A DNA stretch of 64,000 nucleotides, from NCBI GenBank assembly GCA_951406725.2, contig OX597819.1, forward strand, positions 25,668,001-25,732,000, written 5' to 3'. Position numbers and translations under genes: made by a program. The notes beneath the pieces were generated by a model. That model ran no database searches, was not told where the DNA came from, and saw nothing but the letters and a program-made list of their open reading frames with translations. Position 1 is the stretch's first letter. The number at the start of each line of letters is the position of its first letter. This document shows positions 17,447 to 46,930 of this stretch, piece after piece. The DNA is from Octopus vulgaris. Its lineage: Eukaryota.

Positions 17447-19078
17447 AATCTTTATTATAGGCACAACGGCCCGAATGAAGAGGCGACATAACAATACAAC
17501 ACACGACATGGGGTACATATAACAAAAATACAGAAAGGATGATATGAAATGAAATATTAATAATGAATTAAATGAAATGGCTTACGAGCCCCCCAAAGCT
17601 CGCAGTTTCATTTACAATTACAATTGTACTATCTGGGGTGTTCGTCAGTAATGTAAGCGAGTAATTCATCCTGTTCTATAACGCCGGGCAAACTGTCTTA
17701 TCGAACGTAGTGCGCTATGCACACAGCTATATTTGAAAACAAATTTATTAATATATTTACCGTCTCTTTATCCACAATTGCAGCCTTTATTTGGTTATCC
17801 TATATCCTCGGGTTCAATTTCACTCTCGTTAGATTTTTTCATTATCGCTAATTTTTTCTCAATTTTTTATCCTTTTTGTACAACATTACAGCTTTGAGAT
17901 TTTTTCCTTTCGGTCTTCCTCCTTCCTTGCATCTTTTCTAACATTCTTCCACTCTTGTTGACCATTTATTCGTTTCCTCCCACGTTGGACCTTCACTCAC
18001 TTTCGTTGCTGGATCTCTCCCTTCGTGCGTTCGATTCTCTGTCTCGTCGGCAGACTTCTGTTTAGGTCTTTTTCTTTTTTGGTCTTTGCGTGGTGATTCC
18101 AGCCGTGTTTGCTTTCTATCCTCTTTTTCTTCTGTTCTTTCCTTTTCTTTCTCCTTCACCAAACCGTCACCACTTTCCACATTATCTGTTGTCACGATTT
18201 CCTCTTCCGCGTGCAATTCCACATTCTCCTTTTCTAACTCCTCTGTCAAAGTCTCCATTCCTTCCTCCAGTGTTATCGTCTTCTCTTGTATTTCTCTTTG
18301 AGGACACACATCCTTCATGTGCCCTCTGCTCCTACATTTATAACACGCAGTAGGTCTCCACTGCACCACGACTCTCAGTCGTGTCTCATCGGGGAACACC
18401 AACTCCTCCGGGATGTTATACAAATCTGGCATGGTTATGTGGACCGAAACTTGCACCGCATAACCCCACCAGTTTATTTCTTTCGACATTTCCACCTTAA
18501 GAATGTCCACGCTCTCTTTACGGTCGTAGATTATTGCAGCTACTATTGTTTCGGTATCAAGTTCCGGTGAGATTTTGCTTATTCGTATCCTCACTGCTCT
18601 TTTTCTACAATAACTAGGAAGTAAAACTCATTTTCCGATTTTAACACTGTCGTTGCGTTTCTCTTCGCTTCATCTTCATTTTCAAAACGAATGTCTACCC
18701 TAGCGTATTTTCTACCTCTATTGTAGTAGGTAGTTCTTCCCTTAATTTCCTGTAGACATTTCTCAATCTCTTCCACCTCTGCTACTTCTTTTCTCTTTGA
18801 GACCACATTCCAAGTTCTGTATGTTATGACCTTTTTCTCTGCTTCTTTCACTTCGTCTTCAGGTGGTGTAACCCTCAGGCAGTCACCTTCCTTCTTGAAG
18901 CTGTCGTAGTATTTCCTCAAATTTTCCTTCTCGAGCCTGCTGCTCCCGCATAAGTTTGGGCTTGCATACCCAACAAAAAATCCAACAATTCAACACGACG
19001 CAACAGTTCCAACAACAGAAATCAACAAAATCCAACTCACAACCGCAATACAAAATAACCGACACGAACACTTCCAAG
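17447..19078 (-). mobile_element. ORF1-only non-autonomous non-LTR retroelement 1 (L1/Tx1-like ORF1)
   Basis: Flanking repeat TAGTGAGATCTACTGATTGA (17427-17446) / TAGCGAGATCTGCTTATTGA (19079-19098), 17 of 20 identical; AATAAA at the 3' end; single decayed ORF; no RT. Confidence 0.75.
17629..18967 (-). pseudogene. Frameshifted ORF1/gag-like protein with CCHC zinc knuckle
   Basis: MQAQTYAGAA...CLRVTPP...YARVDIRFENEDEAK...LLPSYCRKRAVRIRI...RPTACYKCRSRGHMKDVCP, then a charged linker, ending ...GVIEQDELLAYITDEHPR*. Confidence 0.8.
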
Positions 19079-19241
19079 TAGCGAGATCTGCTTATTGAGA
19101 TGCCTGTCTAGCCTTCGCAAATATATATATTTACAGTGAAATCTATTCACTGGTTACCGTAATTAGAAATATTAAATTTCGAAATGTCTCAAAGAGACAT
19201 GAGCAATGGTGGAGCGATAGAGTGGTTGTATACTGTCAACA

Positions 19242-19471
19242 GGCGGCGACCTGGCAGAAACGTTAGCACGCCGGGCGAAATGCTTAGCGGTATTTCGTCT
19301 GCGTTACGTTGTGAGTTCAAATTCCGCCGAGGTCGACTTTGCCTTTCATCCTTTCGGGGTCGATAAATTAAGTACCAGTTAGGCACTGGGGTCGATGTAA
19401 TCGACTTAATACCTATGTCCGTCCTTGTTTGTCCCCTCTTTGTTTAGCCCCTTGTGGGTAATAAAGAAATA
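19242..19471 (+). mobile_element. SINE family C, full length, 18-bp TSD
   Basis: TSD GGTTGTATACTGTCAACA immediately either side (19224-19241, 19472-19489). Confidence 0.92.
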
Positions 19472-19786
19472 GGTTGTATACTGTCAACATGACGTGAATC
19501 AATTTCCACTGTACCTTTATGCTGCAATCTTTAATTTCGGTATCATTTCACATGCAACATCTTAGTTATGGTTCACATAAAACCTTTTAAAAACTTCCAG
19601 TTTGGAGGAATTAATATCTACAGAATATCTTATATCACACCTCGTCCTTATACTTAATGGAAGATCACTCGAACTTTTCACACCATGAAATCCTCGAACC
19701 AAGTTAATTCTTGTCCTTTCATTTTCCTTTCCACTTCGAGTTTTTGCATGGATTCTTTTTGGGATGCTAAACAGAATATATATATA

Positions 19787-19907
19787 TTGGCCTGCACGCT
19801 TAGCCGGCGGGGTGGCGTTATTGGAAGGCTAAAACAATGCGAACCCATTGTGACCAGCGATGTGTAGCAACATCTGATGGTCTGGTCGGTCACGTGATCA
19901 CATGATA
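19787..19907 (+). repeat. ~120-bp dispersed element in (TA)n (second copy at 59998-60120, opposite strand)
   Basis: TTGGCCTGC.CGCTTAGCC...TTGTGACCAGCGATGTG...GGTCTGGTCGGTCACGTGATCAC is present in both copies. Confidence 0.8.
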
Positions 19908-19926
19908 TCAATATATATAAATACAT

Positions 19927-19962
<36 letters not shown>

Positions 19963-19972
19963 TTATATATAT

Positions 19973-20173
19973 GTAGGTCCCGGGTTGATTCGGGGTTAAC
20001 CACAGTAAATAAGGTACTCAATACATAGCAGAGTAAAATTAATTTATTATATAGAAGGAGCTTCTACAGGACTAGAACTGTTTCATTCAAGCGAAATCAT
20101 CAGTGAGCTTCCTGATGATTTCTCTTGAATGAAACAGTTCTAGTCCTGTAGAAGCTCCTTCTATATAATAAAT
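19973..20173. mobile_element. PLE pseudo-LTR remnant forming a ~62-bp-arm inverted repeat
   Basis: 20042-20103 is inverted at 20112-20173; flanked by (TA)n. Confidence 0.8.
20105..20157 (+). ncRNA. Type I hammerhead ribozyme motif
   Basis: GAGCTTC-CTGATGA-TTTCTCTTGAAT-GAAA-CAG(TTCTAGTC)CTG-TA-GAAGCTC: perfect 7-bp stem I. Confidence 0.8.
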
Positions 20174-20212
20174 ATATTTATATATATATATATAGATTAA
20201 TATGTGTAGTAA

Positions 20213-20216
20213 TGAC

Positions 20217-20282
<66 letters not shown>

Positions 20283-20504
20283 CCAAGAATGGAATTTTTT
20301 AATATTATAATGCATTACTAAGTGCGTTTCCACGAATCGTTTTTGTGACACTAATCATCATTCGTTGTATGATTATAATATAATTTGTTCATGTGTTCAT
20401 TTATTGAGACAGTATTTAAAATATTTAAAAGATTCACAGATTTCATCCTTGGATCATCATCATCGTCCTCATCATCATCATCATCATCCTCATCATCATC
20501 ATCC

Positions 20505-20575
<71 letters not shown>

Positions 20576-20624
20576 GTTATTATTATTATTATCATTATTA
20601 TTATTATTATTACTGTTGTTGTTG

Positions 20625-20673
<49 letters not shown>
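20213..20673. repeat. (AAT)n and compound (CAT)n/(TAT)n microsatellites
   Basis: Seen directly; they explain the poly-N/D/H/S ORFs. Confidence 0.95.
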
Positions 20674-20674
<1 letters not shown>

Positions 20675-20826
20675 ATCGTTACCATATTTATCGTACATGA
20701 TGCCAGCACTGCACAGTACGATGCCATAAAACATCTGTTGCACGTTGGAATCAAGAAGCCGTAGCAGACATAACATAGGAACTTTTATGTACGTACTCAA
20801 AGATGTTTCCCATTAACGAACTTAAA

Positions 20827-20900
<74 letters not shown>

Positions 20901-21034
20901 AATCCTATTAGTCAATTCTCATACATTTAATATTTTTCTTGCGAACACCTCAAACATGCAAATGCAGACAATTAAAGGTCTAGATACCGAGCAGTAAGAG
21001 GATTATGTGCACATTTGGAGATAATTGTTTCATT

Positions 21035-21180
21035 GTACACAGCGCCTCCTCGCGGATATCAGGCTCTATCAACTAGATCTAACTCATTGTTCCTCTATCC
21101 ACTCTGAAAATCTCCTGTTTGCCAAATCCAGAGAATTTTGTTTCAACCATGCTTCAGATATATTCTGTGATAGTATTTGA
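21035..21180 (-). mobile_element. Possible decayed LINE AP-endonuclease fragment
   Basis: Minus-strand motifs ISEAWL, IFRVDR and RGGAV in shifted frames. Confidence 0.4.
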
Positions 21181-21822
21181 TTCATCATGAACTTTGACAA
21201 GCGAAAATAACCAGTGCTTCACTCCATTATATGGAAAACATTCTGAAACCCTTTACCATTGGAGAGCAAGTCTGCTTCAAATCAATATTATCATTTTCTT
21301 CAAAGAAATGCTTAGGCAGAGTCGATAGCATATGAAGGAAATGACTTAACAAGATTTGTTGCCTTACAAATCATTATATCCGTTTTATTAATTTTAAAGT
21401 TGTGTCTAAGATGTCGTCGGTTTCCTCCCGCAGTTTGTCAGTCATTTGTCATATAGTTAATATATAGGTTGCGTGTACAATAGACGCTACTTCCGATTCC
21501 ATTATAATAGTTAAGATACGCTTTGTGTAAGACAAGATATTTTTTTTTATTTAAGGCATTAAATATGTAGACTGTACATAATGATATCACAGAAATCTAC
21601 TTAAGTATGAAAGCTATTGCCAAAAGATTTATCTCGTGGTACTGATTATTTTACAATACGGAGTTCACTTGAAATGTCTAAGTATTCAGCTAGAAAAATA
21701 TCACCGATTTTATTTATGAAGTAGTAGTAGCGACTTAGAAAAACGCAACAGTATTTATATGTCAAAAATGCTTATATGCATGATTGTATACGAAAGTGAG
21801 CTCATATTAGATGCAATAATAA

Positions 21823-22036
21823 GATGGCGAGTTGGCAGAATCGTTACCACATCAGGAAAATACTTAGCAGCATTTCGTCCGTCCTTATATTCTGGGTTCA
21901 AATGCCGCCAGGGTCGACTTTACTTTTCATGCGTTCGAAGTCAATAATATAAGTACCAGTTGAGCACTGGGGTCGATTTATTGACTAAGAGTCTCCCTGG
22001 AAGTTGCTGGCCTTGAGCCAAAGTTTAAAATCAATA
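21823..22036 (+). mobile_element. SINE family C (older, alternative tail)
   Basis: GGCGAGTTGGCAGAATCGTTA...GGTTCAAATGCCGCC...AAGTACCAGTTGAGCACTGGGGTCGAT. Confidence 0.85.
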
Positions 22037-23944
22037 TCAGATGCAATATTGGAAAGAAAGTAATCTAAGACAATTTACTTCTTTGTGTGACTTGCGTACA
22101 TGCGTTAGCTTTCAAGAAGTTCCATGTCTGCCTGTCACTCGCACCATCTTAGCATAGTATTGGACCGAGGTTTCTGCAATCAGGAGGTAAAGACATTGAA
22201 GTGAGCTAGTTGTTGGATTGTGTTTTTGAGATTTGAAGAGGTCTTCATTCGTCTAAGTAAACCGATGCTTGTCACTTTATCTGCATAATACGCCCTCTGT
22301 AAGTGTTCTTCTAAGAAACGACATTTCCGGAGTGTTGATAAAATCTTTACTTGTTTATTGGCCATCCAGATTACACAACTATACGTAGAGAAAAACTACG
22401 TATTTCTGGGTGATGAAAAGTCAACTCGAGATTTCAGAAGTTTTTGAGAGAATATGGAGTTACACCTTAGTGATTACTAATCCATTTCTCTCTCAGGATT
22501 GTTCCGGCCTAGAGTCGTAGTACCTATTGAATTATTCCCGGGTCAGAAAATAAAAGAAAATCCTACACCATACGTCCATAATTGTGTGGCTATACAGTTT
22601 TTGGACAAAGGCTGGCTCTTGATAATTTGATATTGAAGTCCACATGTTTGTAGACATGTACTGATGCCAATTGAACCAAACACAAGTTGCTCCTGTGCCT
22701 CGTGAGCAAGCTCAAGAAAGCAGGAGTTTTGTATTGCAATCTGTAAATAAGCTGACATGAGGTAATGAGAAACCACGATTATATCTTTCTCCGAAAAGTT
22801 ACCAGTCTGCAAACTTTATGTAATGCCCCCGACGTAAATTGAAACACGAAGAACATGTTTATTTCCGTGTTGAATGAAATTAGAATATTTAATATTTTGG
22901 GTTTTTATAACTTTAAGAGAAAAGTACATTTAATATCACGAAGTCAGTGTTATTAAATAACACAATAAAACTACTTCAAGAAACATGAATTCAGGTCATT
23001 AATAAAATGATTCAAAAAATTTTCTTTAATTTTTGAAAAACTATTGCTTTATTCATAGGACGACAATTAACGCCATATTTGAAATTTCTATTTTGATAAA
23101 GGAATGCAGCCGGAAGTGTTTTTGGAAAACTTTTGTAAATAACAAAATGTAGTCAAAGTTAGAATCACTACTTCCAACAGTTTAATATTCTTGATGGATT
23201 TAATTTCCGTTTCTTCTTTTAAGACACTACATGAAGTTGTAAATTATTCGTCAATAGTGTCCAGTTTGGTATTGTGTCTTAGCAATGAAGCTCACGTACT
23301 TCTTTAGCACATGGAGTGCTTTCAAAATAAATTAATTCATTTGTCACATTTTGATATTTCTCATTCTTTGTTTTTCTGTCAACTGCATTTGGTAAATATG
23401 TAAAAGGTTCAAACTTATGCGTTTCCGTTATACCATATTGTCTACACCAAATATGATTTTCCTTCTACTCAAAGAGAAACTTTATTGGTATCCAGGGAGA
23501 AAGTATTAGTTTTATAGCTTGAACTAATGTTATGTAAATGGAAATTACAAATTAAAAGTTTTAAGTGTATATACAAACTTTGAATACGCAAAACCTTAAG
23601 TGTCTAAATAGGCTTATGTTTAAGTGTTTCTATTTATCAGTCATAATGATAAGCAGAAAATATCTTAATGTGCTGGGTGTGACATAGATATTTACTCATT
23701 ATTCACACATAATTGAAACAATCGCAAAACCAGTTGCAGATTTTATGCGACGTATAATGCTTCCTCATATTCTTGGTTTTATTGTTGATCCTTAATTAAA
23801 TATGGCTGCTATGTGAAACAGTTTCAGAATTGATAATGACTGATATAAAGAATCGAGAGGTGATAAAACAGCAGAGAAAAGATTAAGGGCTACGGTGAAC
23901 GCAAATGGTAACCTAAACCTAATGGTAACCTAAACTATCATTCT

Positions 23945-24345
23945 TCTATTCTTTTACTTGTTTCAGTCATTTGACTGTGGCCATGTTGGAGCACTGTTTG
24001 TAATCGAAAAAATTGACCCCAAGGACTTATTGTTTGTAAACATAGTACTTGTTCTATCGGTCTCTTTCGGAACTGCTAAGTTACATAGACGTAAACACAC
24101 CAGCATCAGTTGTCAAGCGACGGTGAAGGGAGAAACACACACACACAAACATGCATACACAAACACACACACACATCCATACACACACACACGACGAGTT
24201 TCTTTCAGTTTCTGTCAACAAAATTCACTCACAAGACCTTGGTCGGCCCGTGGCTATGGTAGAAGACACTCGCCCGAGTCTCCATGTAGTGAAACTCAAC
24301 CTAGAACGATGTGGCTGGGAAGCAAGCTTCTTACCACACAGCCTG
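23945..24345 (-). mobile_element. SINE family A
   Basis: Homology to other family A copies. Confidence 0.88.
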
Positions 24346-24961
24346 TAAAATTTCATTAACCAAAACCTAAAAATTTCTATTTCATGATACAACAAACCAT
24401 GGAATAAATATATAAGCCGTAACCGGTACACTTAATTACACAAACCTCTGATTTATGGGGAAGTTACATCCACTTTATGAAATCTTAACATTTGCCGCCA
24501 TAGAACATCACTTACTCCTGCGGGTCATCCTCTTTCACCTCTATGACTTTTAGATACTGGCTTATATAAAACTTGGCTTTAAACAGAGCATAATACTAAA
24601 TCAAATGTTATAATTCTAATTAGGCCAAAACGTGCTTATTGTTATCCCCATAGGTACCGATGATTAGACCCACTCCCCACAGCACGTCTTCATGTATCTA
24701 TTAACTCTAGTGAGATTTTTATCTTACCACAATTGATTATGTTAAGATTTTAAAAACCTGCATTGCACCTGTGCACGTTGCTTGAACACAAGTTCTGACT
24801 AATCTCTGATTTATGGATGATGTATTTGTCCCATATGAATGGATGAAATAACCAGAAAACGATGAAGACAGTCATATTTAGGATCAAAATTAGTAAAATA
24901 TTTACTGTCCAAAGACAAATATGTATTTGTCACCTTAATATTAGGGAAACATTTAGGAAAT

Positions 24962-25596
24962 GTTCTTTTCTACTCTAGGTACAAGGCCCGAAAATTTGGG
25001 GGAGAGTGCCAGTCGATTAGGTCGATCCTAGTACAGACAAACGGATTAAGTCGATTATATCGACCCCAATGCGTTACTGGTACTTTTTTAATCAACCCTG
25101 AATGGATGAAAGGCAAAGTTGACCTCGGCGGAATTTGAACTCAGAACGTAGAGGCAAACGAAATACCTATTTCTATTTCTTTATTACCCACATGGGGCTA
25201 AACATAGAGGAGACAAACAAGGACAGACAAACGGATTAAGTCGATTACATCGACCCCAGTGCTTAACTGGTACTTAATTTAACGACCCCGAAAGGATAAA
25301 ATGCAAAGTCTACCTCGGCGGAATTTGAACTCAGAACGTAGAGGCAAACGAAATACCTATTTCTATTTCTTTATTACCCAAAAGGGTCTAAACACAGAGA
25401 GGATAAACAAGGACAGACAAACGGATTAAGTCGATTATATCTACCCCAGTGCGTAACTGGTACTTAGTTTATCGCCCCCCAAAGGATGAAATGCAAAGTC
25501 GACCTCGACGGAATTTGAACTCAGAACGTAGCGGCAGACGAAATAGTGCTAAGCTTTTCGCCCGGCGTGCTAACGTATCTGCCAGCTCGCCGCCTT
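24962..25596 (-). mobile_element. Tandem family C SINE array (190-bp period)
   Basis: ACAGACAAACGGATTAAGTCGATT at 25033, 25223 and 25413; only one complete head, at ~25545-25596. Confidence 0.9.
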
Positions 25597-25643
25597 AATA
25601 TTTAGGAAATATTAAAATATTGATTTCCCAATCACCATCGCCA

Positions 25644-26003
25644 TCTTCTTCTTCTTCTTCTTCTTCTTCTTCTTCTTCTTCTTCTTCTTCTTCTTCTTCT
25701 TCTTCTTCTTCTTCTTCTTCTTCTTCTTCTTCTTCTTCTTCTTCTTCATCATCTTCTTCTTCTTCTTCTTCTTTTTCTTTCTCTTCTTCTTCTTCTTCTT
25801 CTTCTTCTCCTTCTTCTTCTTCTTCTTCTTCATCATCTTCTTCTTCTTCTTCTTCTTCTTCTTCTCTTCTTTTTCTTTCTCTTCTTCTTCTTCTTCTTCT
25901 TCTTCTTTTTCTTCTTCTTCTTCTTCTTCTTCTTCTTCTCTTCTTCTTCTTCTTCTTCTTCTTCTTCTTCTTCTTCTTCTTCTTCTTCTTCTTCTTCTTC
26001 TTC
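25644..26003. repeat. (TTC)n microsatellite, ~360 bp
   Basis: Seen directly. Confidence 0.97.
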
Positions 26004-26010
26004 AATAATA

Positions 26011-26432
26011 TACGTGGAGGTGCAATTGTATGGTAAAAAGCTTGCTTCCCAACCACATGGCTCCGGCTTTAGTCCCACTGCGTGGTGCCTCTGCCAAGTG
26101 TCTTCTATTATGGCCGCAGTACGGTCAAAGCGTTGTGACTGGATTTCGTATACGGAAACTAAAGGCCCCATCAAATATATATGCGTGTCAAATATATATG
26201 TGTGTGCGTATGTGTATGTGTGTGTGTGTCTTTGCGTCTGTGTTTGTCCCCACCACCGCCTTAGAACCGATATTGGTGTGTTTATATCCCCGTAACTTAG
26301 CGGTTAGGCAAAAGAAACTCATAGAGTTAGTAATAGGCTAAAAAAATATCTTCTGAGGTCGACTTGTTTGACTAAATTCCCCAGCATGAATGAAACAAGT
26401 TAAATTCCCCAGATGAATGAAACAAGTTAAAG
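26011..26432 (+). mobile_element. SINE family A (diverged; 27-28-bp tandem duplication at the 3' end)
   Basis: Homology; TAAATTCCCCAG(C)ATGAATGAAACAAGT occurs twice. Confidence 0.85.
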
Positions 26433-27097
26433 ATTATTTTTGTGAGTATGAGAGGATATTCCTAGCTATTCGAGTGAGAGAGAGACGGGGGAGGAAAGAG
26501 AGAAAGAAAAGAGATGAGAAAAAGAGAGAGGGAAAGAAAGTAAAAGAAAGAGGGAGACAAAGGAGGTGAGAGAGAACGAGAACGAGGAGAAAGAGATGGA
26601 GATGGAAAGAGAGAGGAGAGAGAAAGAGAGAAAGAGTGCTTTTCATTGGTAGTTCTCGAAAGATCGAAATGCAAGGCTGACCTCGGCAATATTTGAACAC
26701 AGCGTGTAGTGAGTGCAACACAAAACAAAACAAAACAAAAAAAAAATAAAAAAATAAAAACAACGGAAGACCTGCCTGACTTTGTTATTGTCATTAATGT
26801 TTATGGCCAGGTCAGTCGTGAGTGAACCCATGAAGAATGATATTTCAGCAAGCGAGCCATAGTTACCGATAAATTTTCTTCCATCATTGCGTAGTGGGAA
26901 TTACATTCTTCTATCTGTGGAAGTTTACCTTGTCGATCTTAGTGAGATTTTTGCTCTTATTTCTAGCAATTAGCCGACCACATTACAATCTCCGAAATTT
27001 CCTTTCTGGTTGTCTGGCTTGATGACTTATATAATCGACCACATACATATTCCACAGAACAGTTAACGTGGTGTAAATTAAAGTAATCTAATATAAT

Positions 27098-27517
27098 CTT
27101 TTCAAACTCCACCCATCTAACACGTACAAACAATAAATCTGAGCACCTTTTCAAACTCCACCCATCTAACACCCGTTGACATATTTACAAAGTCAGAAAA
27201 CAGCATAGCTCCCATGCGTTCAGGAAACTTTTTTTCACGCTGAGAGTTGCTGAAGCATTGAACAAACTGCCGGCATCAGTTGTTAGTTGTCGGAGCACTG
27301 CATCCTTCAAATCTTCCATGCTTTCTGAGATTCGCCGACACTACACCTGATTTTCTCCCCTCCATACACACACAAGCATGTATCTGACTCATACATTGTT
27401 CGCTTTCCAGACATTTTTACATTACTGCATGTACTTTATATGCACTTTCTGACAAGTTGTGGTGCACCTGAGCACTGTATACAATAATTTCATTATTATT
27501 ATTATTATTATTATTAT
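27098..27517 (+). mobile_element. CR1-like LINE 3' end
   Basis: Decayed SEHLFKLHPSNTR.HIYKVRKQ..FFTLRVAEA.NKLPASVV...SFK ORF2 C-terminus, 3' UTR and (ATT)n tail. Confidence 0.85.
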
Positions 27518-27754
27518 AACAAAATGCACTGATAAGCAGAGAGAAGAGATAAGGGAATTTATGAAATATAGTATTAATTTTAAACAATTTTCTGATTTAA
27601 AATTCTACGATGATCTACTTTGCGCATCACCAATACTTGGCTATTTAGATAAACTGCGCGAAACATTATAACGCAGACGATTTAGCAGAATACATGCCAC
27701 ATTCCCAGCAGTGTTAAAATTACACTCGGCTAGTCAGTGGAAATCAATGTTAAT

Positions 27755-27755
<1 letters not shown>

Positions 27756-27831
<76 letters not shown>

Positions 27832-27862
27832 TACATAGATAGATACATACATAGTTAGATAA

Positions 27863-27895
<33 letters not shown>

Positions 27896-27907
27896 TATAT
27901 ATATATA

Positions 27908-27963
<56 letters not shown>

Positions 27964-27975
27964 ATATATGTATGT

Positions 27976-28023
<48 letters not shown>

Positions 28024-28033
28024 GTATATATAT
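27756..28033. repeat. Compound (TA)n/(GA)n/(CA)n microsatellite
   Basis: Seen directly. Confidence 0.95.
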
Positions 28034-28527
28034 AAACCTTCTGATAATAATTCTCATTCTATGTCTTCCGAGATTAACATGACAGAAGAACTGAAGCACA
28101 CATTTCCTGAACAGCGCAACAATGATTACACGTTAGAGACAGGCTTTCGAAAAGACACCATTGTGTCTCGTACTTGTAAAAGTAACTCTGGTCATTCATA
28201 CGGCCATGCATAAGCATGATGATGAGTTTTATATTCCAGTGAGACGTGAAAATTTCGTGTTCATGTAATGTATCTCATACAATTCATATGTAATATAATA
28301 TAATACACTATAATATATCATATCACATAATACATGTGTGTGTGTGAATGTATATATACATTGTATATATATATATATATGTCTGTATGTGTGCGCCTGT
28401 ATATGCCTGTGAGCGTGTATTTATGTTAGTGTATCCGGTAGTGGTGTGTTCAAAATATTTCACTGATTTATTACGGGCGAAGTCACGTTCAATAATAATA
28501 TTGATGATAATAATAATAATAATAATG

Positions 28528-28591
<64 letters not shown>

Positions 28592-28593
<2 letters not shown>

Positions 28594-28925
28594 GTAATAG
28601 TTCTCATATCGACAATGCTCTTCTCAATACGTGTGATGTACCAGTTAAGACAATCTTTTGTAACATCCCTGCAAGAAGTGCAAAAGATTGTCGTAACTGG
28701 TACATCACACGTATTGAGAAGAGCATTGTCGATGTGAGAACTATTACTACCCATGTATTTTAATTTACCCATGTATTTTAATTTAACTTTATTTCTATCA
28801 AAAAAAAAAAATGAACGAACTAGTGAGTTTAGTTTAATGGCCTACGAATGTATACTATGAGTTTCTTTGCCCTAAGAGTCGGGAAGACACTCGGCAAGAA
28901 ATGGAAGCAAATTTGCAATAATAAT
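28592..28925 (+). mobile_element. R4/Dong-like (RLE-type) LINE 3' end with inverted 5' segment, within (TAA)n
   Basis: SLQEVQKIVVTGTSHVLRRALSM* C-terminus; 28592-28661 is the reverse complement of 28680-28750; (AAT)n on both sides. Confidence 0.75.
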
Positions 28926-28936
28926 TTCAAATTTGA

Positions 28937-29004
<68 letters not shown>

Positions 29005-29153
29005 TAATAATAATAATAATGACACTATTAATGTTCTGAGTGCTTTGCCCTTTGAATACTCAATAACTTTATGAATTTCAAATCACTGTATTTTAAGTAA
29101 ACACACGAACTCACAACACACACACATACACACACATACATACACACACTTAC

Positions 29154-29199
<46 letters not shown>

Positions 29200-29785: not shown

Positions 29786-29969
29786 CAGGAGAGGCAGTGT
29801 GGTAAGCAGCCAGCTTACCAACGACATGGTTCTGGATTCAATTCCATTGCGTGGCACCTTGGGAAAGTGTCTTTTACTTTCTAGTATAGTCTCGGGCCGA
29901 CCAAAGTATTGTGAGTGGATTTGGTAGACGGAAACTGAAAGAAGCCCGTCAGATATATATATATATGTA

Positions 29970-30021
<52 letters not shown>

Positions 30022-33398: not shown

Positions 33399-34199
33399 TA
33401 CGCACACATACATGCTTATATATACAAATATTCAAGAAAAGTATTTTTAGTAATTTCAAAGTCACTCTTAAAATGTTCCTTGTCAAAATGTATCCTATTC
33501 TTTCCTGGAACTCAAACCTAGCACTCTATGAATCATTATGCATACACACAAGCTTTTATATACATGAATACATACAAAGGAAAGCTATGAACGTATTTTT
33601 GCTTTTCCAACAAATATCAAGAGTTTAAATATCAAATAAGATTACGTATATTTTTGATCAAGAAACCGATATTAACAAAATAATGAGATATGAAAAACAT
33701 ATTAAGGATATCTGAATAAGGTATCAAGCTATATGAGTTTTGTTGCTGCTACAAGTTTTAATCATTTATCACATTGGGAGACGAACTGACAGATATAGAT
33801 AAACATTTAAACATATAGATGGCGAAGTTGAAATATTCATAGATAGGAACATAAATATACTATTGACTTTATTTAATTATATTAGCTAACCCATAACATA
33901 TACTTGTATAATTTTTATTGAACTTTTATGAGCACTGTAGTCAGAAAGTGATATTGTTCAGAGGGTATGTGCTTCAATGAGTATACAAAACACTATTGAG
34001 AAGATGCATCTTGAACAATTTATATTAATTCTACTTCCCCACTGAGGAAAATGTAACAAGCCCTGGTTATTTCCCATTTATTCTTTTTAAAAATATGCAA
34101 CAAAACTACGACGAAACCACAGAAAAACATTTACAGATCTTATTGCATGCGGCAAACATCCTAGAAAGTTTAAAAAATGGTAATGTAAGATCCACGTAG

Positions 34200-34680
34200 T
34201 TAAAAAGAAACTGATCACGTCCCTACAAGAAAACAGCTTGATCATTGACGTGCATCACAACTCTCATACACGAAGGAGCTGCCACACATCGCTAAAACCA
34301 AATCATCTAGATGTCGATGTAATATATCTCGACTTTGTAAAGGCCTTCGCTAAAGCTGAATACATAAGGATTAGATACGAACTGCGGGGACGTTGGTATA
34401 GTTGGAAATCTAGCGAAGATGTGCTTATCCTTTTAAAAGCAAAGAATCAAGGAGCTGTGACCACCAGTGTTCTCTCCGACGTCAGATGACTTCAGCTACT
34501 CTCATTGACTTTGCTGAAGAGATAAAAATATCAGAGGCACTCATATATCCTGATGATAATACAATTCTGCAGAATGACCTGAATGCAATATTCAAGGATG
34601 TTCAAGGTATCAGCATGTTCAAAACCGAAAATTTGCAAGTAATCTATGATCAGTTCTCGAGTAGATTGTAATCACAATAT
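34200..34680 (+). mobile_element. Decayed CR1-like reverse transcriptase fragment
   Basis: VDVIYLDFVKAF and FAEEIKI...ILQNDLNAI, resembling YLDFxKAFD and FADDTKI...LQxDL. Confidence 0.75.
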
Positions 34681-36183: not shown

Positions 36184-36255
<72 letters not shown>

Positions 36256-36599
36256 TATATATACATATATACATATATATATATATCTGTATATATGATT
36301 GCATATGAATTAAATACCCCCCACACACGCACCTAATACCTTTAGCTCATTAAAGAGACATTCGGTTCAGTTAACAAGACATCTGCAATTCCATTAACGG
36401 AAATATTTATAGTTGAATTTTCATTCGCTCTTATTACCCATAATTCTTTTTGATCACCAGGAGTATAATAATTTTTATCTTTCATACTTTTTATTTTCTT
36501 TCATCAAATTACGCACTGAAGTAAATATTGTTCGAATGTTTGACGTAATCGTTGTAAAAATACGTAGACCTAAAAGTCTGTTATATATATAAATAATAT

Positions 36600-36819
36600 T
36601 TTAGTAGTATCAATCAGTGGATTGAGGTGATGGTGGGACATTGATTAGAAGGTTTTTAGACGAAAGAATAGATCTCAGTAATTATCTTTTTGAAAGCCTG
36701 GTTCTTATTCTATCGGTCTCTTTTCCCGAACCAGTAGGTGTGGAGTGCAAAAAGCAAAAAGACACATTTATAGTTACAAATCTATCTACTTATCTATCTA
36801 TCCATCCTTCCATTCATCC

Positions 36820-36856
<37 letters not shown>

Positions 36857-36857
36857 C

Positions 36858-36931
<74 letters not shown>

Positions 36932-37165
36932 CTTTTTCCTTGCCTCTCTTTCTTTATACACAAACACACTCAGACACACATATGTATCTATATATATATA
37001 TCTGACGGGCTTCTTCCAGGTTCCGTTGATCAAATCCTCTCACAAGACGTTGGTCAACCCGGGTATACAGGACAAGATATTTGCACAAGAAGCTACGCAA
37101 GCAGACTGAACCATTAAATGTAATTGAACAGTAGCAATTTTCTTACCAAAGGCCCCTGCTGCACT
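36600..37165 (-). mobile_element. Old SINE family A with expanded (TCTA)n
   Basis: Diverged body and head homology. Confidence 0.7.
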
Positions 37166-37285
37166 TATATATATATATATACATATTTAGAGTTTTTAAC
37201 TCTTATCTCTAACAACTGCTTCGGCACGGTCAGTCACATTAAGTAACAATAAAATTTTTCCCTCACGATATTATATTGCGCCTAT

Positions 37286-37461
<176 letters not shown>

Positions 37462-37709
37462 ATATGCATGTATGTGTAGGTGTGTGTGTATGTAGTGTGC
37501 GTATGTAAGTATGCATGGGTATATCTATGCATTTATGCGTGTGAAGGTGATTATTTCACGGAACTGTAAAGAATCTGCCATACAGTAATCACTTCGTCTA
37601 CGCACTCTGAGTTTCAATCGCTCACAGATCGATTTTGACTTTTATTCTTTCATTCTTTTATTCTTTTGGAATCGGTAAACAAGTACCATATTGTACTAGA
37701 ATATGTTCT

Positions 37710-37749
<40 letters not shown>

Positions 37750-37966
37750 CCTCATTAGCTTTCACTCTCCTTCTCCCACTCTCTCTCTCTCTCACTCATT
37801 CTTTCCCTCACACTTTATCTCTTTGTCTTTCTTTCGGAGAAATAATCCGCTGTAGTCACATCCAGAATGTGATGTTCCATCAAATTTGAAAATGGCCATT
37901 ACACATTATTTATAGCAAAAGAGTATCTTACTACTCTATCAAGCGGTTGAGGTACCTAAGTAAAAC

Positions 37967-38021
<55 letters not shown>

Positions 38022-38302
38022 CATACAAATAAACGAATAAAAATACATACATGTATACTACGTTAGTCTTTCTCAAACAATGTGATAAATTGTGCATATG
38101 TTGCTTTTAGAGTTAAATGTGGTTTATAGCAGTGCAAAAGAGTATTATCAAATAAATTATGAGACATCAGAAACAGAAACAAAAATACCAGTATATGATA
38201 ACAGACGGTATGGATTTTGCATTTGGTTTTAATGCTATGTTTACTTATGAAGTGAATGATATAGACAAGGCAGTTAGGTAGACAGATAGATTGTAAGGTG
38301 GA

Positions 38303-38964
<662 letters not shown>

Positions 38965-41267
38965 ATATTTAGTTAAAACAATCCAACAAATATCTCTCAA
39001 CTGCGTCTTGTTGCTCGATAAATTGCTACAGTTCAATGGTTTCGTGAGCAATTTTTTTTATTTATATATTTAACATCAGGTTGTTTTACTTGTGTGTTTG
39101 TTACCACACCGTTATCAATAGCCAGAGACTGTCAGTATATATATATTTTCAAACATCGAACTCTTTCCGGATATTCAGGCTGGGATTCATTACCTTTTTT
39201 TCAGTAAGATTTTCAATGCTGTATGTGTTGCACATCTTGGTTTCTTTTGGGACACAATATTGAGTGATATGGATTTATAGAAACGCGCCGAAATCCTATT
39301 ATGAAGTTTTCTTATGTAGAGCTTTGTCTGTTATCAATGTCAGTTTCCAAACATACCGACCAAGCAGTTTCTTAGAGGGTTCGTTTCTTTTATGTCTGTA
39401 GGGGTATGAGAGTGTTGTTGCTTTGTTGCTGTTGCTTGGCAGGTAGATTATAAGAATAAGACCTCGCCTTATGAGAGCTAAGCCGAGAGATTAGAAAGAA
39501 AGTATTTGAATGAATGTATCGTACAGAACATCAAAACATTATGATATTTGTATTCATATATTAAAGCTGTGATTTTCAAGCTGATAATCATCAGGCTCCA
39601 CTCACCAAAATTTTGCTCAACCTCTCGTTTAATTATAAGACAAAACAACGTCTGTATGCGTATAATTCTGTTTTTCTCACTATGAAATTTTACACCATTA
39701 ACAGTTAAAAACTTTCTCAATTTCATTAAACACTGCTGTTTGTCAGTGATCTTTTTCAATACTTGCAGCCCTCCACACGTCAATAGATCCAGGCCACTAC
39801 TGGAAGAAACGGGTGTCAATGCTATTATATACTCACTGTTCTGTCCTGTAAATTCTTCTGGAGAAAGCTAGTATTTGAATAGTACAGGTGTAATTGATAT
39901 TTTTCTGCTAATCAACCACACAGTTAACCACTAGTATAAGCCTTTGATATCAATCTAAAAAATATCAAATATCTTAAAGCTTTTATTTGAGAAATCTATG
40001 ATATACAATGACTACTTAATTCGCCACCTGGTAGATATACATGGAAGGGAATTTATTTGACATCTGAGAAAATATTATTAGTATGGTAATTATGACTTAT
40101 TTGACGTCTGATAATGTGTTATTAGAATGATAATTGGAACATGTCAGTCCATTTCATCGTAAGTCCTAGTTAAATTAAACAACATTGATTAAATTTGTCT
40201 ACCGTAACTTGCTTTGTTGATTATAGATTCAACACTCCGCAATCAATATTTTTTAGATTTCTATTTGTAAAATTAAGTGTTAACGTGTGAAGCGGTCGTC
40301 TTGTGAGTGTCTTAATACTAGTATAACACTGTTTACTTACATAATCACATTATGTCATATTGATAAACTTTGTTTTTATTGATATTATTTCTGCTACTGT
40401 TAGCTGTTAAAAAGATTACCTATAATCAAATGCGTTCCATATGCCGCCATTACGTTTTGCGTTTATTACATTATTAAGAGTGACTTTATAGAAATGAATA
40501 GGAATCGATGTGAGGGATATTTGGTTGCTATTTCTTAAAGGTAAACAGCCATGTAGAAGCTCTAATGTTACCACATAGTCAACGAAAAGTTATAATGTGA
40601 TTATTGATGTTCACATCAATATATGTAAGATAAGAATGGACACGACTTCATTCACTGATCGAATGAGTGAAATTTTGTAATCTTGGCTTTCTAAACTCAT
40701 CAATTGCTTTACAGCATTCCGTCTTTCAAATGTAGAAATAGTGATTTGTTACTGAAGTCCACAAATACGTTGTGCAGGGGCGAGTCGAGAATATTCTATT
40801 GCTCTTTCCATTTTGTGTCAGGTTTTTACAATACATTCTCTCTCTCGCTTTCTTTCAATACTTTCCTATCAATACCTATAGTTCACACGTGATTTCACAA
40901 CCCCCACTCACTGGTTTCTCTCCTCTTCCCGGCAAATAACCGCCACCTCCCTAAGGTTTTGTTTTGGATGCTTGTGAGTGTCTGAAATTTCTGTAACCAG
41001 GAGTTCTTTCGTTTTTAGGATCAGAAGATTAGTCCAAAGTCCAAACTTGAAATCCTGGTTTTCTGTCGGGCTTGGTTTTCTTTGTACGATCAGGCGATTT
41101 CCTCTCATTTACGAGCTCCATCTGACCAGGATTGGAACTCAGACTTTCCATCTAGTAGAAACATTTATGAAACCCCATACCAACCAGCTTAGTTGGTGAC
41201 TTTTTAAAAAAGGCTGAGAGAATTAGTGGTGTAATATTGCCCCGGTCATTTGCGCCCATTTTGCGTT

Positions 41268-41660
41268 AAGTAGCTGTGTGGTAAGTAGCTTGCTAACCAA
41301 CCACATGGTTCCGGGTTCAGTCCCATTGCGTGGCATCTTGGGCAATTGTCTTCTGCTATAGCCCCTTGCCGACCAATGCCTTGTGAGTTGATTTCGTAGA
41401 CGGAAACTGAAAGAAGCCTGTCCTATATATGTATATATATATGTGTGTGTGTGTGTTTGTCCCCCTAGCATTGCTTGACCACCGATGCTGGTGTGTTTAC
41501 GTACCCCGTCACCTAGCGGTTCGGCAAACGAGACCGATAGAATAAGTACTGGGCTTACAAAGAATAAGTCCCGGGGTCGATTTGCTCGACTAAAGGCGGT
41601 GCTCCAGCATGTCCGCAGTCAAATGACTGAAACAAGTAAAAGAGTAAAAGAGTAAAAGAG
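41268..41660 (+). mobile_element. SINE family A (young, 5' end clipped)
   Basis: Close to 56200-56618; (GTAAAAGA)n tail. Confidence 0.92.
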
Positions 41661-41838
41661 TATCCTACGCCGTGTCCCAACGGAACATCAACATTAATGT
41701 GGTGTGGGAGTGTGACTACAGAGTGCACCCTTCCTGAGTAGCTTAGCATTGCAATTGTTTTACAGCAATGAATGATTGATAAATGTTTAATCGTTGATCT
41801 CAGGCATGAAAGAGTGAGGAGATGAGAGTGGTTTTAAC

Positions 41839-41884
<46 letters not shown>

Positions 41885-41892
41885 ATCTAAAC

Positions 41893-42121
41893 CTTTCTTT
41901 TACTTGTTTCAGTCATTTGACTGCGGTCATGATAGAGCACTGACTTTAGTCGAACAAATCGGCCCCCAGGATTTATTCTCTGGAAGCCTAGTACTTATTC
42001 ACGCAGTCTATTTTGCAGAACCGCTAAGATACGGGGACGTAAACACACCAACATCAGTTGTAAAGCGATGGTGGGGGAACAAACACAGACACACGGAAAC
42101 ACACATACACACTCATACACA

Positions 42122-42162
<41 letters not shown>

Positions 42163-42312
42163 GACGGGCTTCTTTCAATTTCTGTCTACCAAATCCACTC
42201 ACAAGGTTTTGGTTGGTTCGAGGCTATAGTAGGAGACACTTGCCCAAGAAGCCACGCCGTGGGACTGAACCCGAAGCCATGTGGTTAGGAAGCAAGCTCC
42301 TTACTACACAGT
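41893..42312 (-). mobile_element. SINE family A
   Basis: Homology; inverted relative to the 41268 copy. Confidence 0.9.
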
Positions 42313-42353
42313 TAATCCTCTATATGTATATATGTAGCTATGTATGTGTGTAT

Positions 42354-42390
<37 letters not shown>

Positions 42391-42394
<4 letters not shown>

Positions 42395-42660
42395 AAATAT
42401 TAGGGAATAAATCCAAACTTACAGGGAAAAATCAGATTTAAGATTGAATCCAATTTTATAGTAAAATATTATATTATATTAAATTAGAGATAAAACCACT
42501 ATTAGCCATGAAACGATCGTAGTGTTATATTAATTATATTTTTTAATAATTTTGATATATATTTAAATAATATAAATTAATTAATCTTATGTATTGGCTT
42601 AAGTTTTTCATTGTATGATTTGCCTAATAGTGGTTTTATCTCTAATTTAATATAATATAT
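42391..42660. mobile_element. PLE remnant with inverted ends and a hammerhead 3' half
   Basis: ATATTATATTAAATTAGAGATAAAACCACTATTAG is inverted at 42624-42658; TAGCCATGAAACGATCGTAGT resembles the 52330 motif. Confidence 0.65.
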
Positions 42661-42700
42661 ATATAGATAGATAGATATAAATATACACATACACACACAC

Positions 42701-42733
<33 letters not shown>

Positions 42734-44914
42734 TATATATATACACACACACAAAGGAAAGCTTTAGGAACATTTCATGATAGAGCTACAATATTTTATA
42801 CTAAGATTTTTTTAAAATCAATAATTAATATTATAGTTGTAAAAAATCATTTAAAATGAGGACATTAACACACACCTACTGGGAAGAACTTCTTGTGTAA
42901 GCGCTTTCCACTGTTTCCAGTTGTTCAAGCCCATATCATATATCACACACACACACGCACAAACACGCACATGTATATATGTATGTATTTGTGTGTGTGT
43001 ATGTGTGTGTGTGTGTAATTCACTTTTTCTTTAAGGTAGGAACAACATACAAATTATAGCATTCTGTGAGTGATAAATATCATTTAATGTACACTATTAA
43101 AATACAAGCAACTAATATTTTTTTGCCATAGAGAATTATATAACGTACTTTATGTTTGGAAGCAATATTCAAATTTTGGTCCATGGTTTGTTTTATTCGA
43201 AAATAGGACGCTGGTACATGAAAAATCACAAATAAAAATGAAGAATGTTGATACAAAAATTGAAATGAGAAGAGAAAAGGTGAATATAAACAGAAAAGGA
43301 AAGTAACGAAAAAGAAGAAAGTTAGAATTAAACCGTCTTCGACCAGCAGTTGTACAAAGTCTGTAATATGGTTGCTCAATCCGGAGGGGCGGTGTCCAGC
43401 AGTTTGATAAAAGAAATTTGTCCATATGCTATATGTTACTTTAGTAAAGGTGAAAAATCTTAGCACACTGTTACTCAGATTTGTGATTATCCCGAATATA
43501 TGGTCAACAATCACATGAAACTCTGAGCAACAGTTCGTGAAGGTCTTTTTAAAGCTTTAATAAAAAAATTTATTACTCTGCTGTTGATATTCGAGTACAG
43601 TTTTTTACCACCTACCTTGGACCTATGCGCTTCCTTGTGTGTATATGTGTTTGTGTGCGTGCATATATATTATACGTGAATATATATATATATGTGTACG
43701 TGTGTGTGCGTGAGTGTGCGTGTATGTGTGTGCGCGTGTGTGTGCATGTGTGTGCGAGTGTGTGTACATGTGTGTGCGTGTGTGTGTGTGTGCCTATAAT
43801 CACACACATAGAAAGAAAGAGAGAATAATATAAATATATATGAGACACACATACATACATATACATATCGAACACGCAGCAATTCTAACAAACATAAAAA
43901 ATATGAAAATTGTAAAAATTATTCCTCTCAGTAAATTAATATTTTCATACTCAGACATGTCCATGACACAGAAATATGTCAATGTTTGTGATATTGATTT
44001 AAAGGTAGATAAAAGATTCGAGTAAACTTTACATAAATCAGTGCAGGTAAAGTTTGTCATTGCATTAAAGCATAACATCACATAATTTAAGTTGAGTGAC
44101 ATTCACAGAAATCATTTTGTAAGAAGGATTTGTAAAATCCAGTTTGACAGGTCTGCTTAACTCATTCTAAGTGGGTTTAGGAAAATGAAAATAGTTCATA
44201 ATCTTTGTTTTACTTCTTGACAATTTTTAATCATCGTCTCTTTCCGGATTCAAAAATACCTATCTCTGAATATCTACCCTTTCTTTACTATTCCATCATC
44301 CATTTCCGCTGTTTTGTTTCCCTCATTCTCCAGCCATTCTCTGCCTTTTTATAACCCGTAAGAACTTGATGCTTGACGTTTCCAATAAATGCGATAGATT
44401 CATTGAAAGAAAAAAAAATTAAGCATACCGCTATATTTACAGATGAAGTATACGGAGTCCATGCAGTGTTGCTAGTATCTCAAAGACCAAACTAAAGAGG
44501 AGTCGAGCTATTATATACTATTGACTTAGTGCCCAAGCATTTAACACAAAACAGAATAAATAATAAAAAAAAATGACAGGAGATGCAGATGAGGGCAGCT
44601 GCATCGAACGCTCTCATGCACCAAATTGCAATTGCTAAAAAGTGCTCGTGAAGTAAAATCATATAGCAACACCAAATGGTGGTGCTCCAGCATGGCCACA
44701 GCTTGTGAGCTGAAATTAGATAAATGAAAAAATAAAAATATCACATACATAAAAAAGGAAGGATTCATTGAACAAGGTATTTAAACACACACACGCACAC
44801 ACACATAATTGAAAAACAAGAGGACAGTGGAAATTTATTCACATCCAAAACTTTTTTATTAAAAAGATTTCTATATAGGCGCAGGAGTGGCTGTGTGGTA
44901 AGTAGCTTGCTTAC

Positions 44915-46930
44915 CCAGAATGCAACACTAGTTGGTCTGGACTGTTACAGTGAGCAGATGTGAGTTTCGGCTCCGCGAATAGAAAAAAAGAACAAAAAGA
45001 AAAATTGTCAATTATAGCTCGCTATAGCGAGCAAAATACTGGGTTCTCATCATCGCAACGGTGAATTGAGAATTTTTTTGAAAGTTCTTGTGAATTCTAG
45101 TGGACGTATCTTGCCAGAAAAATAAGAATAAGCCATTTGGATTACCTTTTTGGAGTATTATACAAAGGATTCCCTGTCTGTGCTATTTGTAAGGTTTTTC
45201 TTTTGCTTTTCCCTTCTTCTATTTTTTCTTTCTTTCTAAATTTTGGTTCATTCTTTTTATTACTTTAATTTCAGTTTCCTCCCCTCCTCTTTTATTTATT
45301 TTTTTTTTATTCGGTTTAATTTTTTGGCAGACTGTCTTTTTAACTACTTTTGAACTGTTTTTTGACATGGCAGAGAAGGAACTTAAAAAGAAAAAACTCT
45401 GTCTTAGAGTGGGAAATTAACCCGCCTAAGCAGTGGTTAGAAGATATGGAGGAGAAGACGATGGTACTTAGAACGTATTCTAAAGTTCTTATTTCCATCA
45501 CCGTCTTCCAAAAACAAGTCATAAAAAATGAACTTAAAGAACATTTGTCCTCTGTAAAATATATATCCGTGGTGTCAAACATGCAACCGTATGGTTGCTG
45601 TTTGACAACGGGGAAAAGGCTCGCCAGTTTGCGAGTCAGCCTTTAAAAGGCAAGGAAATTTTGCTTCTCCCGTCATATTGTGGAAGAAAATTAATACGAG
45701 CCTGGGTATGTGGGCTTCCCCGGGCACCGAAGCGGATTGGATTGAAGATACCATCCGACGGGGACTGGGGGATGGTGGGCCCAGGCTCTTAAATGTAAGA
45801 GTATTGCCGGCGGTCGATTGGGAAGGGTCAAAATCGCTTTTGACCCTGTGGACCCCATCGGCCATAACAGATCTGGTTTTTCCAGATTTCTTGAAAATGG
45901 CTGGCTGCAGGTATCCGGTGATACTTGAGGGACGTCCCCCAAAGTGTCACACGTGCCTGCAGCCAGGCCACAGTAAAATAACTGCCCCGAGGACCATGGT
46001 AAGGTCCTGGAACAGTCACTAAATGCCACCTCCCCTACTCGGTCAAAGGGAGAGTTGGATGTGGTCTAGAGAGGCTTCAGCCTCCTCAACTCAAAAAGGA
46101 TTAAAAAGGAAGAAGGCGGGCAACAACAGGCTTCGGAAGGCGGGGGAGAGTCTCCGGACAAAGCGGAAGAGCTCCACTCTCCCGAAGCCAGGAAAAAAAA
46201 AAGAAGGAAGAAGAACGGGTCATCTCAGCGGGGAGATGATGTGCCGACTGCATGTCCCGAAGTTGTTCCACCCACGGTGGAGGAAACCACCCCACCCTTA
46301 CAGATGATCAATTAATTATCTTTTTCGACAAGGGCGGGGAGGTGGAAAAATAGTAGAAGAACATAAAGAAACAGTAGATATGCCCTTCACACGGGATCCC
46401 GAATGGCCTCCGCAGATAGCTGTGGAGGTCATAAGGTTTCCCTTGTGGGAAAGGCTTAAAGGATTTGGGGAGGAGTGTCGCATATGGCCGTGTGGCCGTT
46501 ACACGACTTACATGTCCTACATGAGTGAGGCATGGGAAATGGCGGGATACAGGAACTCAAGCGGCATTGAAGATAATGATGAATATATCGATGGATATAT
46601 CGAAGAGTAGGAGGTGAAAGACCCTCGTTACTGGGTTTGAAACCTCATCTTATTGGATTATTTTGTAGTGGTTTATAACCTCAATTTTGTGCTTTAAGAA
46701 AGAAAAAAGAAAACATGTTAAGTAAGAGGTTTTAGTGCCTCCTCCTTGTAAGAGGTTTGAAACCTCATATTGATTTAAAAAAAAAAGAAAATATGTTTTC
46801 GAGAAAAATCCAATCGGCGGGTGTTGGGTTTCGTCTCTCATTTATTCACTATATTTCATTTTCATTCATTAATGTGTTTGTCCAGCCCGCAAAGCTCTTT
46901 GTACTGTCTATATGACAAATTTATGAAATA
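44915..46930 (+). mobile_element. ORF1-only non-autonomous non-LTR retroelement 2
   Basis: Perfect 15-bp TSD AAGTAGCTTGCTTAC (44900-44914, 46931-46945); AATAAA at the 3' junction; one decayed ORF; no RT. Confidence 0.88.
45367..46639 (+). pseudogene. Frameshifted ORF1/gag-like protein with CCHC-type knuckle
   Basis: MAEKELKKKKLCLRV..PPKQWLEDMEEKTMVLRTYS...FDNGEKARQFASQPLKGKEILLLPSYCGRKLIRAWV...LEGRPPKCHTCLQPGHSK...GIEDNDEYIDGYIEE*EVKDPRY. Confidence 0.8.

Follow-up and report, generated by a model that had tools for sequence, protein, structure and literature searches.

Two elements in a 64,000-nucleotide stretch of Octopus vulgaris DNA, here named A and B, are most probably defunct copies of two retroposons, distantly related to each other, of the open reading frame 1 (ORF1) type. 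Both are bounded by target-site duplications and lack a reverse transcriptase (RT), and the ORF2 protein of an autonomous long interspersed nuclear element (LINE) is the likely agent that copied them in trans. The stretch (assembly GCA_951406725.2, contig OX597819.1, positions 25,668,001 to 25,732,000 of the forward strand; hereafter the window, from whose first letter all positions are counted) is AT-rich, repeat-laden animal DNA. An earlier note, made from its letters alone, had described the two ORF1-only proteins as distant homologues with a shared, unannotated C-terminal segment and had taken their common RT-less architecture as the mark of an old, diversified class. The parts of both elements, including the RNA recognition motifs (RRMs), the C-terminal domain (CTD) and the untranslated regions (UTRs), are as follows.

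17450-19078, minus strand: element A, ORF1-only retroposon copy of 1,629 bp, ending in AATAAAG without poly(A)
19079-19101, minus strand: 5' copy of the target-site duplication of A, 20-23 bp with 3-4 mismatches
17427-17449, minus strand: 3' copy of the same duplication, immediately 3' of AATAAAG
18292-18935, minus strand: predicted RRM1-RRM2 and one CCHC knuckle of A, from a hidden Markov model (HMM), Pfam zf-CCHC, and the model and fold search of the relative P0033
17914-18291, minus strand: charged low-complexity linker of A, predicted to be disordered in the relative P0033
17653-17913, minus strand: CTD of A, interrupted by frameshifts and a stop; the ORF ends at 17629
17450-17628, minus strand: 3' UTR of A with a patch rich in TTCAT and a stem-loop predicted at its end
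44915-46930, plus strand: element B, ORF1-only retroposon copy of 2,016 bp, whose host site is a very common repeat resembling a short interspersed nuclear element (SINE)
44900-44914, plus strand: 5' copy of the target-site duplication of B, exact over 15 bp
46931-46945, plus strand: 3' copy of the same duplication, whose first three bases finish the terminal AATAAAG
45367-45995, plus strand: predicted RRM1-RRM2 and CCHC knuckle of B, with four frame breaks
45996-46311, plus strand: charged linker of B
46312-46505, plus strand: probable CTD core of B, its register in agreement with the family profile
46506-46640, plus strand: terminal extension of B, with the C-terminal motif of the earlier note and an in-frame stop at 46608
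46641-46930, plus strand: 3' UTR of B with a TTCAT-rich patch

Each unit holds one decayed ORF1-like ORF, on the minus strand at about 18967-17629 in A and on the plus strand at 45367-46640 in B, and a gene for RT or endonuclease is absent inside both. Indeed, units of 1,629 and 2,016 bp are too short to hold an ORF2. Pfam detected no RT or endonuclease domain in the frames of A and B or in the 145 other ORFs of the window with at least 62 amino acids; both ORF1-like loci of the window (2 of 2) are without RT. The RT-less architecture of the two units, as read in the earlier note, is thereby borne out. The duplication of A scores 15, against a best of 13 among 40 shuffles, and in B the AATAAAG end overlaps the exact duplication by three bases. 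The two elements are alike at their 3' ends, with AATAAAG in place, poly(A) missing and a TTCAT patch at a distance of 60-95 nt from the terminus; the stem-loop predicted for A has a z of -2.39 (4 of 200 shuffles). Far from both elements, short frames at 34184-34486 (plus strand) and 9343-9630 (minus strand) resemble decayed LINE ORF2 pieces by eye and gave no Pfam match at E 0.001.

The N-terminal parts of the two proteins are clearly homologous. They share 62 identical residues in 192 aligned columns with a Smith-Waterman score of 212, compared with a maximum of 55 among 1000 shuffles, and blastp aligns A and B at 26% over 324 columns (E 4e-24). Additionally, we built an HMM of the N-terminal part from 61 database relatives, excluding A and B, and searched the six frames of the window with it; the only convincing matches were A and B. 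Read-throughs joined by X at the breaks reach 234 bits for A, whose N-terminal part has a single frame break near 18630, and 99 bits for B, and the unjoined frames of B give matches in the right order with E-values of 3e-8, 1e-6 and 0.03. The distant homology claimed earlier thus stands, and all peptide motifs quoted for it were found in the window where they had been placed. Among these motifs, CLRV is present in B, but its match to A is uncertain, since other copies are one base shorter at 45391, which would shift the frame; two read-throughs around this position score alike, with 103.0 and 101.8 bits. The claim that DNA likeness is confined to the TTCAT-rich 3' UTRs held in that blastn gives no match between A and B and a TCATT/TTCAT-rich patch of about 35 nt does align; this alignment, however, is weak, as 7 of 1000 shuffles equal it and the patch is of low complexity.

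The N-terminal part is predicted to consist of two RRMs and one CCHC knuckle, as in a type I LINE ORF1p. The AlphaFold model of the unbroken relative P0033 contains two alpha/beta domains of high confidence, followed by a linker modelled with low confidence and a tail that stands apart, and Foldseek matches the N-terminal model best to tandem-RRM proteins (E 4e-4 to 1e-3). Pfam zf-CCHC scores above the cut-off in several relatives and below it in A (E 0.0035). A type I ORF1p is described, in the accessible text of PMC4120745, as having at least one RRM directly upstream of a CCHC knuckle, and this is the order found in the predicted structure of P0033, the Foldseek matches and the zf-CCHC hits.

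For the database relatives, we used the second RRM and the knuckle of A as a phmmer query, which returned 158 proteins at E <= 0.001. From the best 150 of these, 20 were set aside, mostly multi-knuckle proteins with similarity in the knuckle only, and 130 were kept, including P0122 as a true relative. The identity of these 130 relatives, among the best 150 of 158 matches, is roughly 24-64%. Organism names, available for 16 of the 30 relatives looked up, are Octopus bimaculoides (11), O. sinensis (2), O. vulgaris (2) and Argonauta hians (1). Most relatives are singleton fragments with arbitrary names; P0033, P0060, P0102 and P0010 are unbroken, at 404-623 aa. P0102, with 603 aa, lies on a contig of 2,209 bp, matching a complete ORF1-only unit in length, but contigs of this sort are frequently broken. 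Many subgroups appear in a tree of 27 rows, with B on a long branch (1.94) and of uncertain placement. The distant relative P0122/P0151, with 861 aa, a longer tail region and contigs of 3,483 and 6,159 bp, is the strongest candidate for an autonomous member or an out-group. The family is diversified, as had been proposed, being large, deeply diverged and present in three Octopus species and in Argonauta.

Other searches added no further relatives. Word-index protein searches returned none, a weak negative since one of them missed a 64%-identical relative; A was found in 0 of 157 metagenome stretches, P0122 in 0 of 2 viral contigs, and Rfam gave nothing at the gathering score. Two apparent B loci in metagenomes were rejected as chance matches of 20 residues on contigs with 59-60% GC and no HMM match. 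Among octopus gene models, P0051, P0029, P0091 and P0054 hold element pieces under unrelated names; in P0051 the knuckle and the tail domain are spliced into an RGS-domain model.

A conserved CTD of about 85 residues exists across the family and in A. We chose 14 relatives by eye, each of which ends in this block after the linker. Among the 18 relatives with at least 120 residues past the knuckle, the domain is clear in 11, partial or weak in 2 (P0005 and P0122) and absent from 5, and leave-one-out HMMs recovered 6 of 7 held-out members with 5.9-45 bits. In A, the CTD HMM gives 15.3 bits (E 6e-6), its sole match in the six frames of the window, and the same region scores highest among 3186 six-frame windows. 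AlphaFold predicts a beta-alpha-beta-beta-alpha arrangement with a terminal helix (pLDDT 83.5). Searches with the domain gave no match in Pfam, none among PDB sequences (best E 0.18) and nothing at E <= 0.001 in the Foldseek PDB and viral sets, while VIA-align pointed to no clear fold (best Z 6.6, with KH-, ACT- and ferredoxin-like rows tied); such unmatched look-ups do not show that the fold is new, nor do they indicate a function. The tail of P0122 gave only Atlas matches below 0.9.

The tail of B probably contains a domain homologous to that of A, as judged from its sequence. A glocal profile alignment places 46312-46505 in register with the CTD at z 5.2, compared with z <= 1.2 for three RRM-region controls, and with three different gap settings 0, 5 and 5 of 3000 shuffles scored as high. 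The match lies at the expected position, keeps the spacing from the first to the third strand and has an insertion after the helix similar to that of P0122. Against it stand the misses by hmmsearch, by hhalign (probability 0.4%) and by the pairwise tests with all 7 of 7 relatives, together with the decoy windows, 0-6% of which score as high (1-6% under two of the three gap settings). These negatives would fit a B tail that has no relation to the CTD of the family and falls into register by chance, which we consider unlikely in view of the z difference from the controls, the position, the strand spacing and the insertion shared with P0122. The earlier suggestion of a shared C-terminal segment, possibly an extra domain, therefore holds for the domain itself, which A clearly has and B probably has, but not for the alignment on which it was built. 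The GVIEQD/GIEDND register was rejected as being at chance level: for the last 22 against the last 30 residues 143 of 2000 shuffles do equally well, and for tail against tail 1309 of 2000 do. The motif quoted in B lies about 25 residues beyond the CTD core, in the terminal extension, and a terminal-helix profile that finds the motif of A (22.0) does not place that of B at the proposed register among its top 4.

B belongs to a many-copy family whose other copies run from the ORF directly into the same 3' UTR. For this survey, public contigs from four sequencing runs were aligned to 44760-47060; none of the runs listed is registered as RNA. Contigs cover B in 30 of 30 bins, with three organisms among the labels of their runs, and the aligned pieces listed diverge from the window copy by roughly 3-20%. 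Three pieces (46525-46740, 46449-46660 and 46518-46848) join the ORF to the 3' UTR. A difference at the ORF end (46632) is seen in 43, 37 and 28 contigs of runs X1-X3; these counts resemble those of the comparison sites inside the ORF, which give 25, 34 and 24 contigs at 45440 and 59, 72 and 47 at 45834, where contig depth over B is not to be read as copy number. Joints of the empty host repeat across 44915-46947 appear in 4 of 4 runs, and the 5' boundary of B also shows loose ends. Five of the 7 frame breaks used for B (45566, 45717, 46070, 46289 and 46345) match indels in other copies, and a sixth may do so at 45391 (among 12 of 26 indel rows); the decay is therefore copy-specific. Over 46377-46607, in the tail-coding region, the summed contig depth of the three larger runs is several-fold above that of the rest of the ORF, perhaps a sign of conservation across subfamilies, perhaps of another repeat.

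We propose that the RNA of such an element would be transcribed from its own 5' UTR and coated by its own ORF1p through the RRMs and the knuckle, with the tail domain, by its predicted structure, most likely helping in RNA binding or particle assembly. An endonuclease/RT borrowed from an autonomous LINE would then prime at the AATAAAG end and leave the duplication of 15-23 bp. Kojima suggested that ORF1 proteins of such elements multimerise with those of the autonomous partner (according to the accessible part of PMC5786205). By analogy we lean slightly toward a LINE of the L1/Tx1 group as the partner, because of the duplication length, the ORF1 type and the abundance of this group in O. vulgaris, for which 80 autonomous L1-Tx1 families, 13 of them recently active, are given in the available text of PMC13282606. 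The missing poly(A) and the predicted 3' stem-loop of A mean that other partners are possible.

Several observations weigh against the interpretation of A and B as trans-copied, RT-less retroposons. B is nowhere covered from end to end by a single contig, and the loose-end rows read were 24 of 2,256, so that a minority of copies could bear an ORF2. The many-copy contig evidence covers B only, while A rests on its duplication and its many protein relatives. No RT or endonuclease Pfam domain occurs among the 130 family proteins, which is weak evidence, as ORF2 would be a separate ORF; the search for a fused ORF1-RT protein, limited to a word index and to 1,508-4,305 aa, also found none and is likewise weak. 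Unlike in a typical L1, the poly(A) tail is missing in both copies. No partner LINE was found, and the choice of Tx1 draws on architecture and on Atlas leads that stay under 0.9. Those leads point to ZCCHC3-type RNA-binding domains at 0.83-0.84. ORF1s of the Tx1 clade resemble such domains, and no Pfam RBD_ZCCHC3 or RRM match is listed among the family members scanned.

How the two lineages arose is a separate matter, as two diverged ORF1-only families would be just as likely to result from repeated loss of ORF2 as from an old class. We see about an even chance that A and B go back to separate and fairly recent ORF2 losses from autonomous LINEs that shared the ORF1p with its tail domain, so that the deep divergence belongs to the parents. 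Repeated origin is reported in the accessible text for HAL1 (PMC5753468) and, with dozens of lineages, for the Drosophila telomeric elements (PMC13534243); moreover, the UTRs of A and B are unrelated except for the low-complexity patch, and the P0151 contig of 6,159 bp is long enough for ORF1 and ORF2. The lack of RT at both window loci, the similar 3' ends and, weakly, the failure to find a fused ORF1-RT protein speak against repeated loss, as does the unit-sized contig of P0102 with the reservation made above. The proposal of the earlier note, a single old RT-less lineage that diversified by itself across the octopods, is a tentative possibility. It agrees with the spread over three Octopus species and Argonauta in many subgroups, with the similar 3' ends and with the precedent of monophyletic ORF1-only clades (reported in the accessible part of PMC13534243), whereas the RT status is known for A and B only and B sits on its long branch with uncertain placement. 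In its strongest form, an ancient monophyletic octopod lineage with 25-30% protein identity, no autonomous relative carrying the same ORF1, and its own undescribed tail domain as an adaptor that captures the RT of another LINE, the proposal is rather unlikely.

There are two further explanations. In the first, ORF1 transcripts of full-length LINEs were polyadenylated prematurely and retrocopied, and the units would not be self-propagating families. This would suit the AATAAA signal at which both end; with poly(A) missing, with T-rich UTRs of 180-290 nt that lack an endonuclease start, and with one such UTR common to many diverged copies of B, we regard this as highly improbable. Still more remote is the idea that a domesticated host gene family of ZCCHC3 type gave rise to them as processed pseudogenes. 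The Atlas leads and the annotation of relatives as genes in octopus proteomes would be in line with it, but these relatives are mostly arbitrarily named singleton fragments, the diverged copies of B are very many, poly(A) is missing and no Pfam ZCCHC3 domain match is listed.

Beyond the two elements, the surroundings of A contain nested repeats at about 19500-19217 and 17240-17208. A direct repeat of about 33 bp brackets a host stretch of about 330 bp, which has short inverted ends and no second copy in the window; the left copy of this repeat is interrupted by a SINE-like insertion with its own duplication of about 18 bp. Just 3' of the duplication of A, at 17419-17385 on the minus strand, lies a core resembling a hammerhead ribozyme (CTGATGA, a 4-bp stem, GAAA, the palindromic ATGCAT and GTC), by the hammerhead consensus. 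The pattern by itself matches at 5 places in the window, and Rfam gives no hit. The insertion site of A may be a Penelope-type or retrozyme-like repeat. Elsewhere, a near-perfect palindrome at 15898-16403, with 250-bp arms that are 98% complementary, a 6-nt spacer and a partial third arm at 15439-15594, is either a foldback element or an assembly artefact, and a Tc1/mariner transposase remnant at 58380-58831 (plus strand) matches HTH_48 and HTH_Tnp_Tc3_2 below the cut-off.

ORF1-only LINE derivatives are a known kind, with examples in mammals, flies and mosquitoes; an octopod group with this CTD was not found described. Neither such a derivative nor the CTD turned up for cephalopods in full-text literature searches, including the available portions of the octopus and mollusc repeat papers PMC9115989, PMC8967140 and PMC11203168, and the repeat libraries (Repbase, Dfam, O. 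vulgaris) may hold the families under another label. As the units lack RT and their zf-CCHC match is weak, RT-based repeat pipelines would probably label them unknown, and pieces of the elements already stand in octopus proteomes as ordinary gene models. A large octopod group below 30% identity with a conserved extra domain would provide a natural series in which to study what makes an element without RT retain its ORF1p in cis and how a foreign RT is recruited. Should the units only be derivatives of repeated ORF2 loss, the value lies in a new ORF1p subtype and in better annotation.

Among known systems, elements with long terminal repeats (LTR), such as those of the TRIM and LARD type, make duplications of 4-6 bp. 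An LTR or gag-only element of this type was rejected, as no terminal repeats occur beyond the duplications of 15-23 bp. What we do find, one ORF1-like ORF, no endonuclease or RT, target-site duplications and, for B, many copies, is the pattern of an ORF1-present non-autonomous LINE. The half-L1 (HAL1) in the strict sense has a 3' poly(A) tail, and HAL1 proper was rejected with no Transposase_22 in the 130 family proteins, two alpha/beta domains and a knuckle in the model, and an AATAAAG end without poly(A). The HAL1 elements of mammals are nevertheless close in kind, being non-autonomous, multi-copy and limited to an ORF1p whose coding capacity was long retained (accessible text of PMC5753468 and PMC3627910), and the octopus units are likewise non-autonomous, multi-copy and ORF1p-only. 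They differ in their predicted RRM-RRM-CCHC protein with a distal domain, in place of the coiled-coil/RRM/CTD protein of Transposase_22, and in the missing poly(A) of A and B. The Tx1-type L1s of non-mammalian animals have ORF1s with RRMs and a CCHC knuckle (excerpts of PMC5203782). With the ORF1p of the Tx1 group and other APE-type LINEs, and with ZCCHC3-like proteins, the octopus units share RRMs directly upstream of the knuckle; they differ in lacking ORF2 and in a tail domain without Pfam or clear PDB match. HeT-A, other Drosophila telomeric elements and Ag-Sponge of Anopheles are ORF1-present non-autonomous LINEs as well (accessible part of PMC5786205), and Jockey-lineage ORF1s are also of type I, with RRM and CCHC (accessible text of PMC4120745). 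In contrast to the telomeric arrays of HeT-A and to Ag-Sponge, the octopus elements are dispersed, flanked by duplications of 15-23 bp and only 1.6-2.0 kb long, and they combine a single knuckle with an extra predicted folded domain after a long linker.

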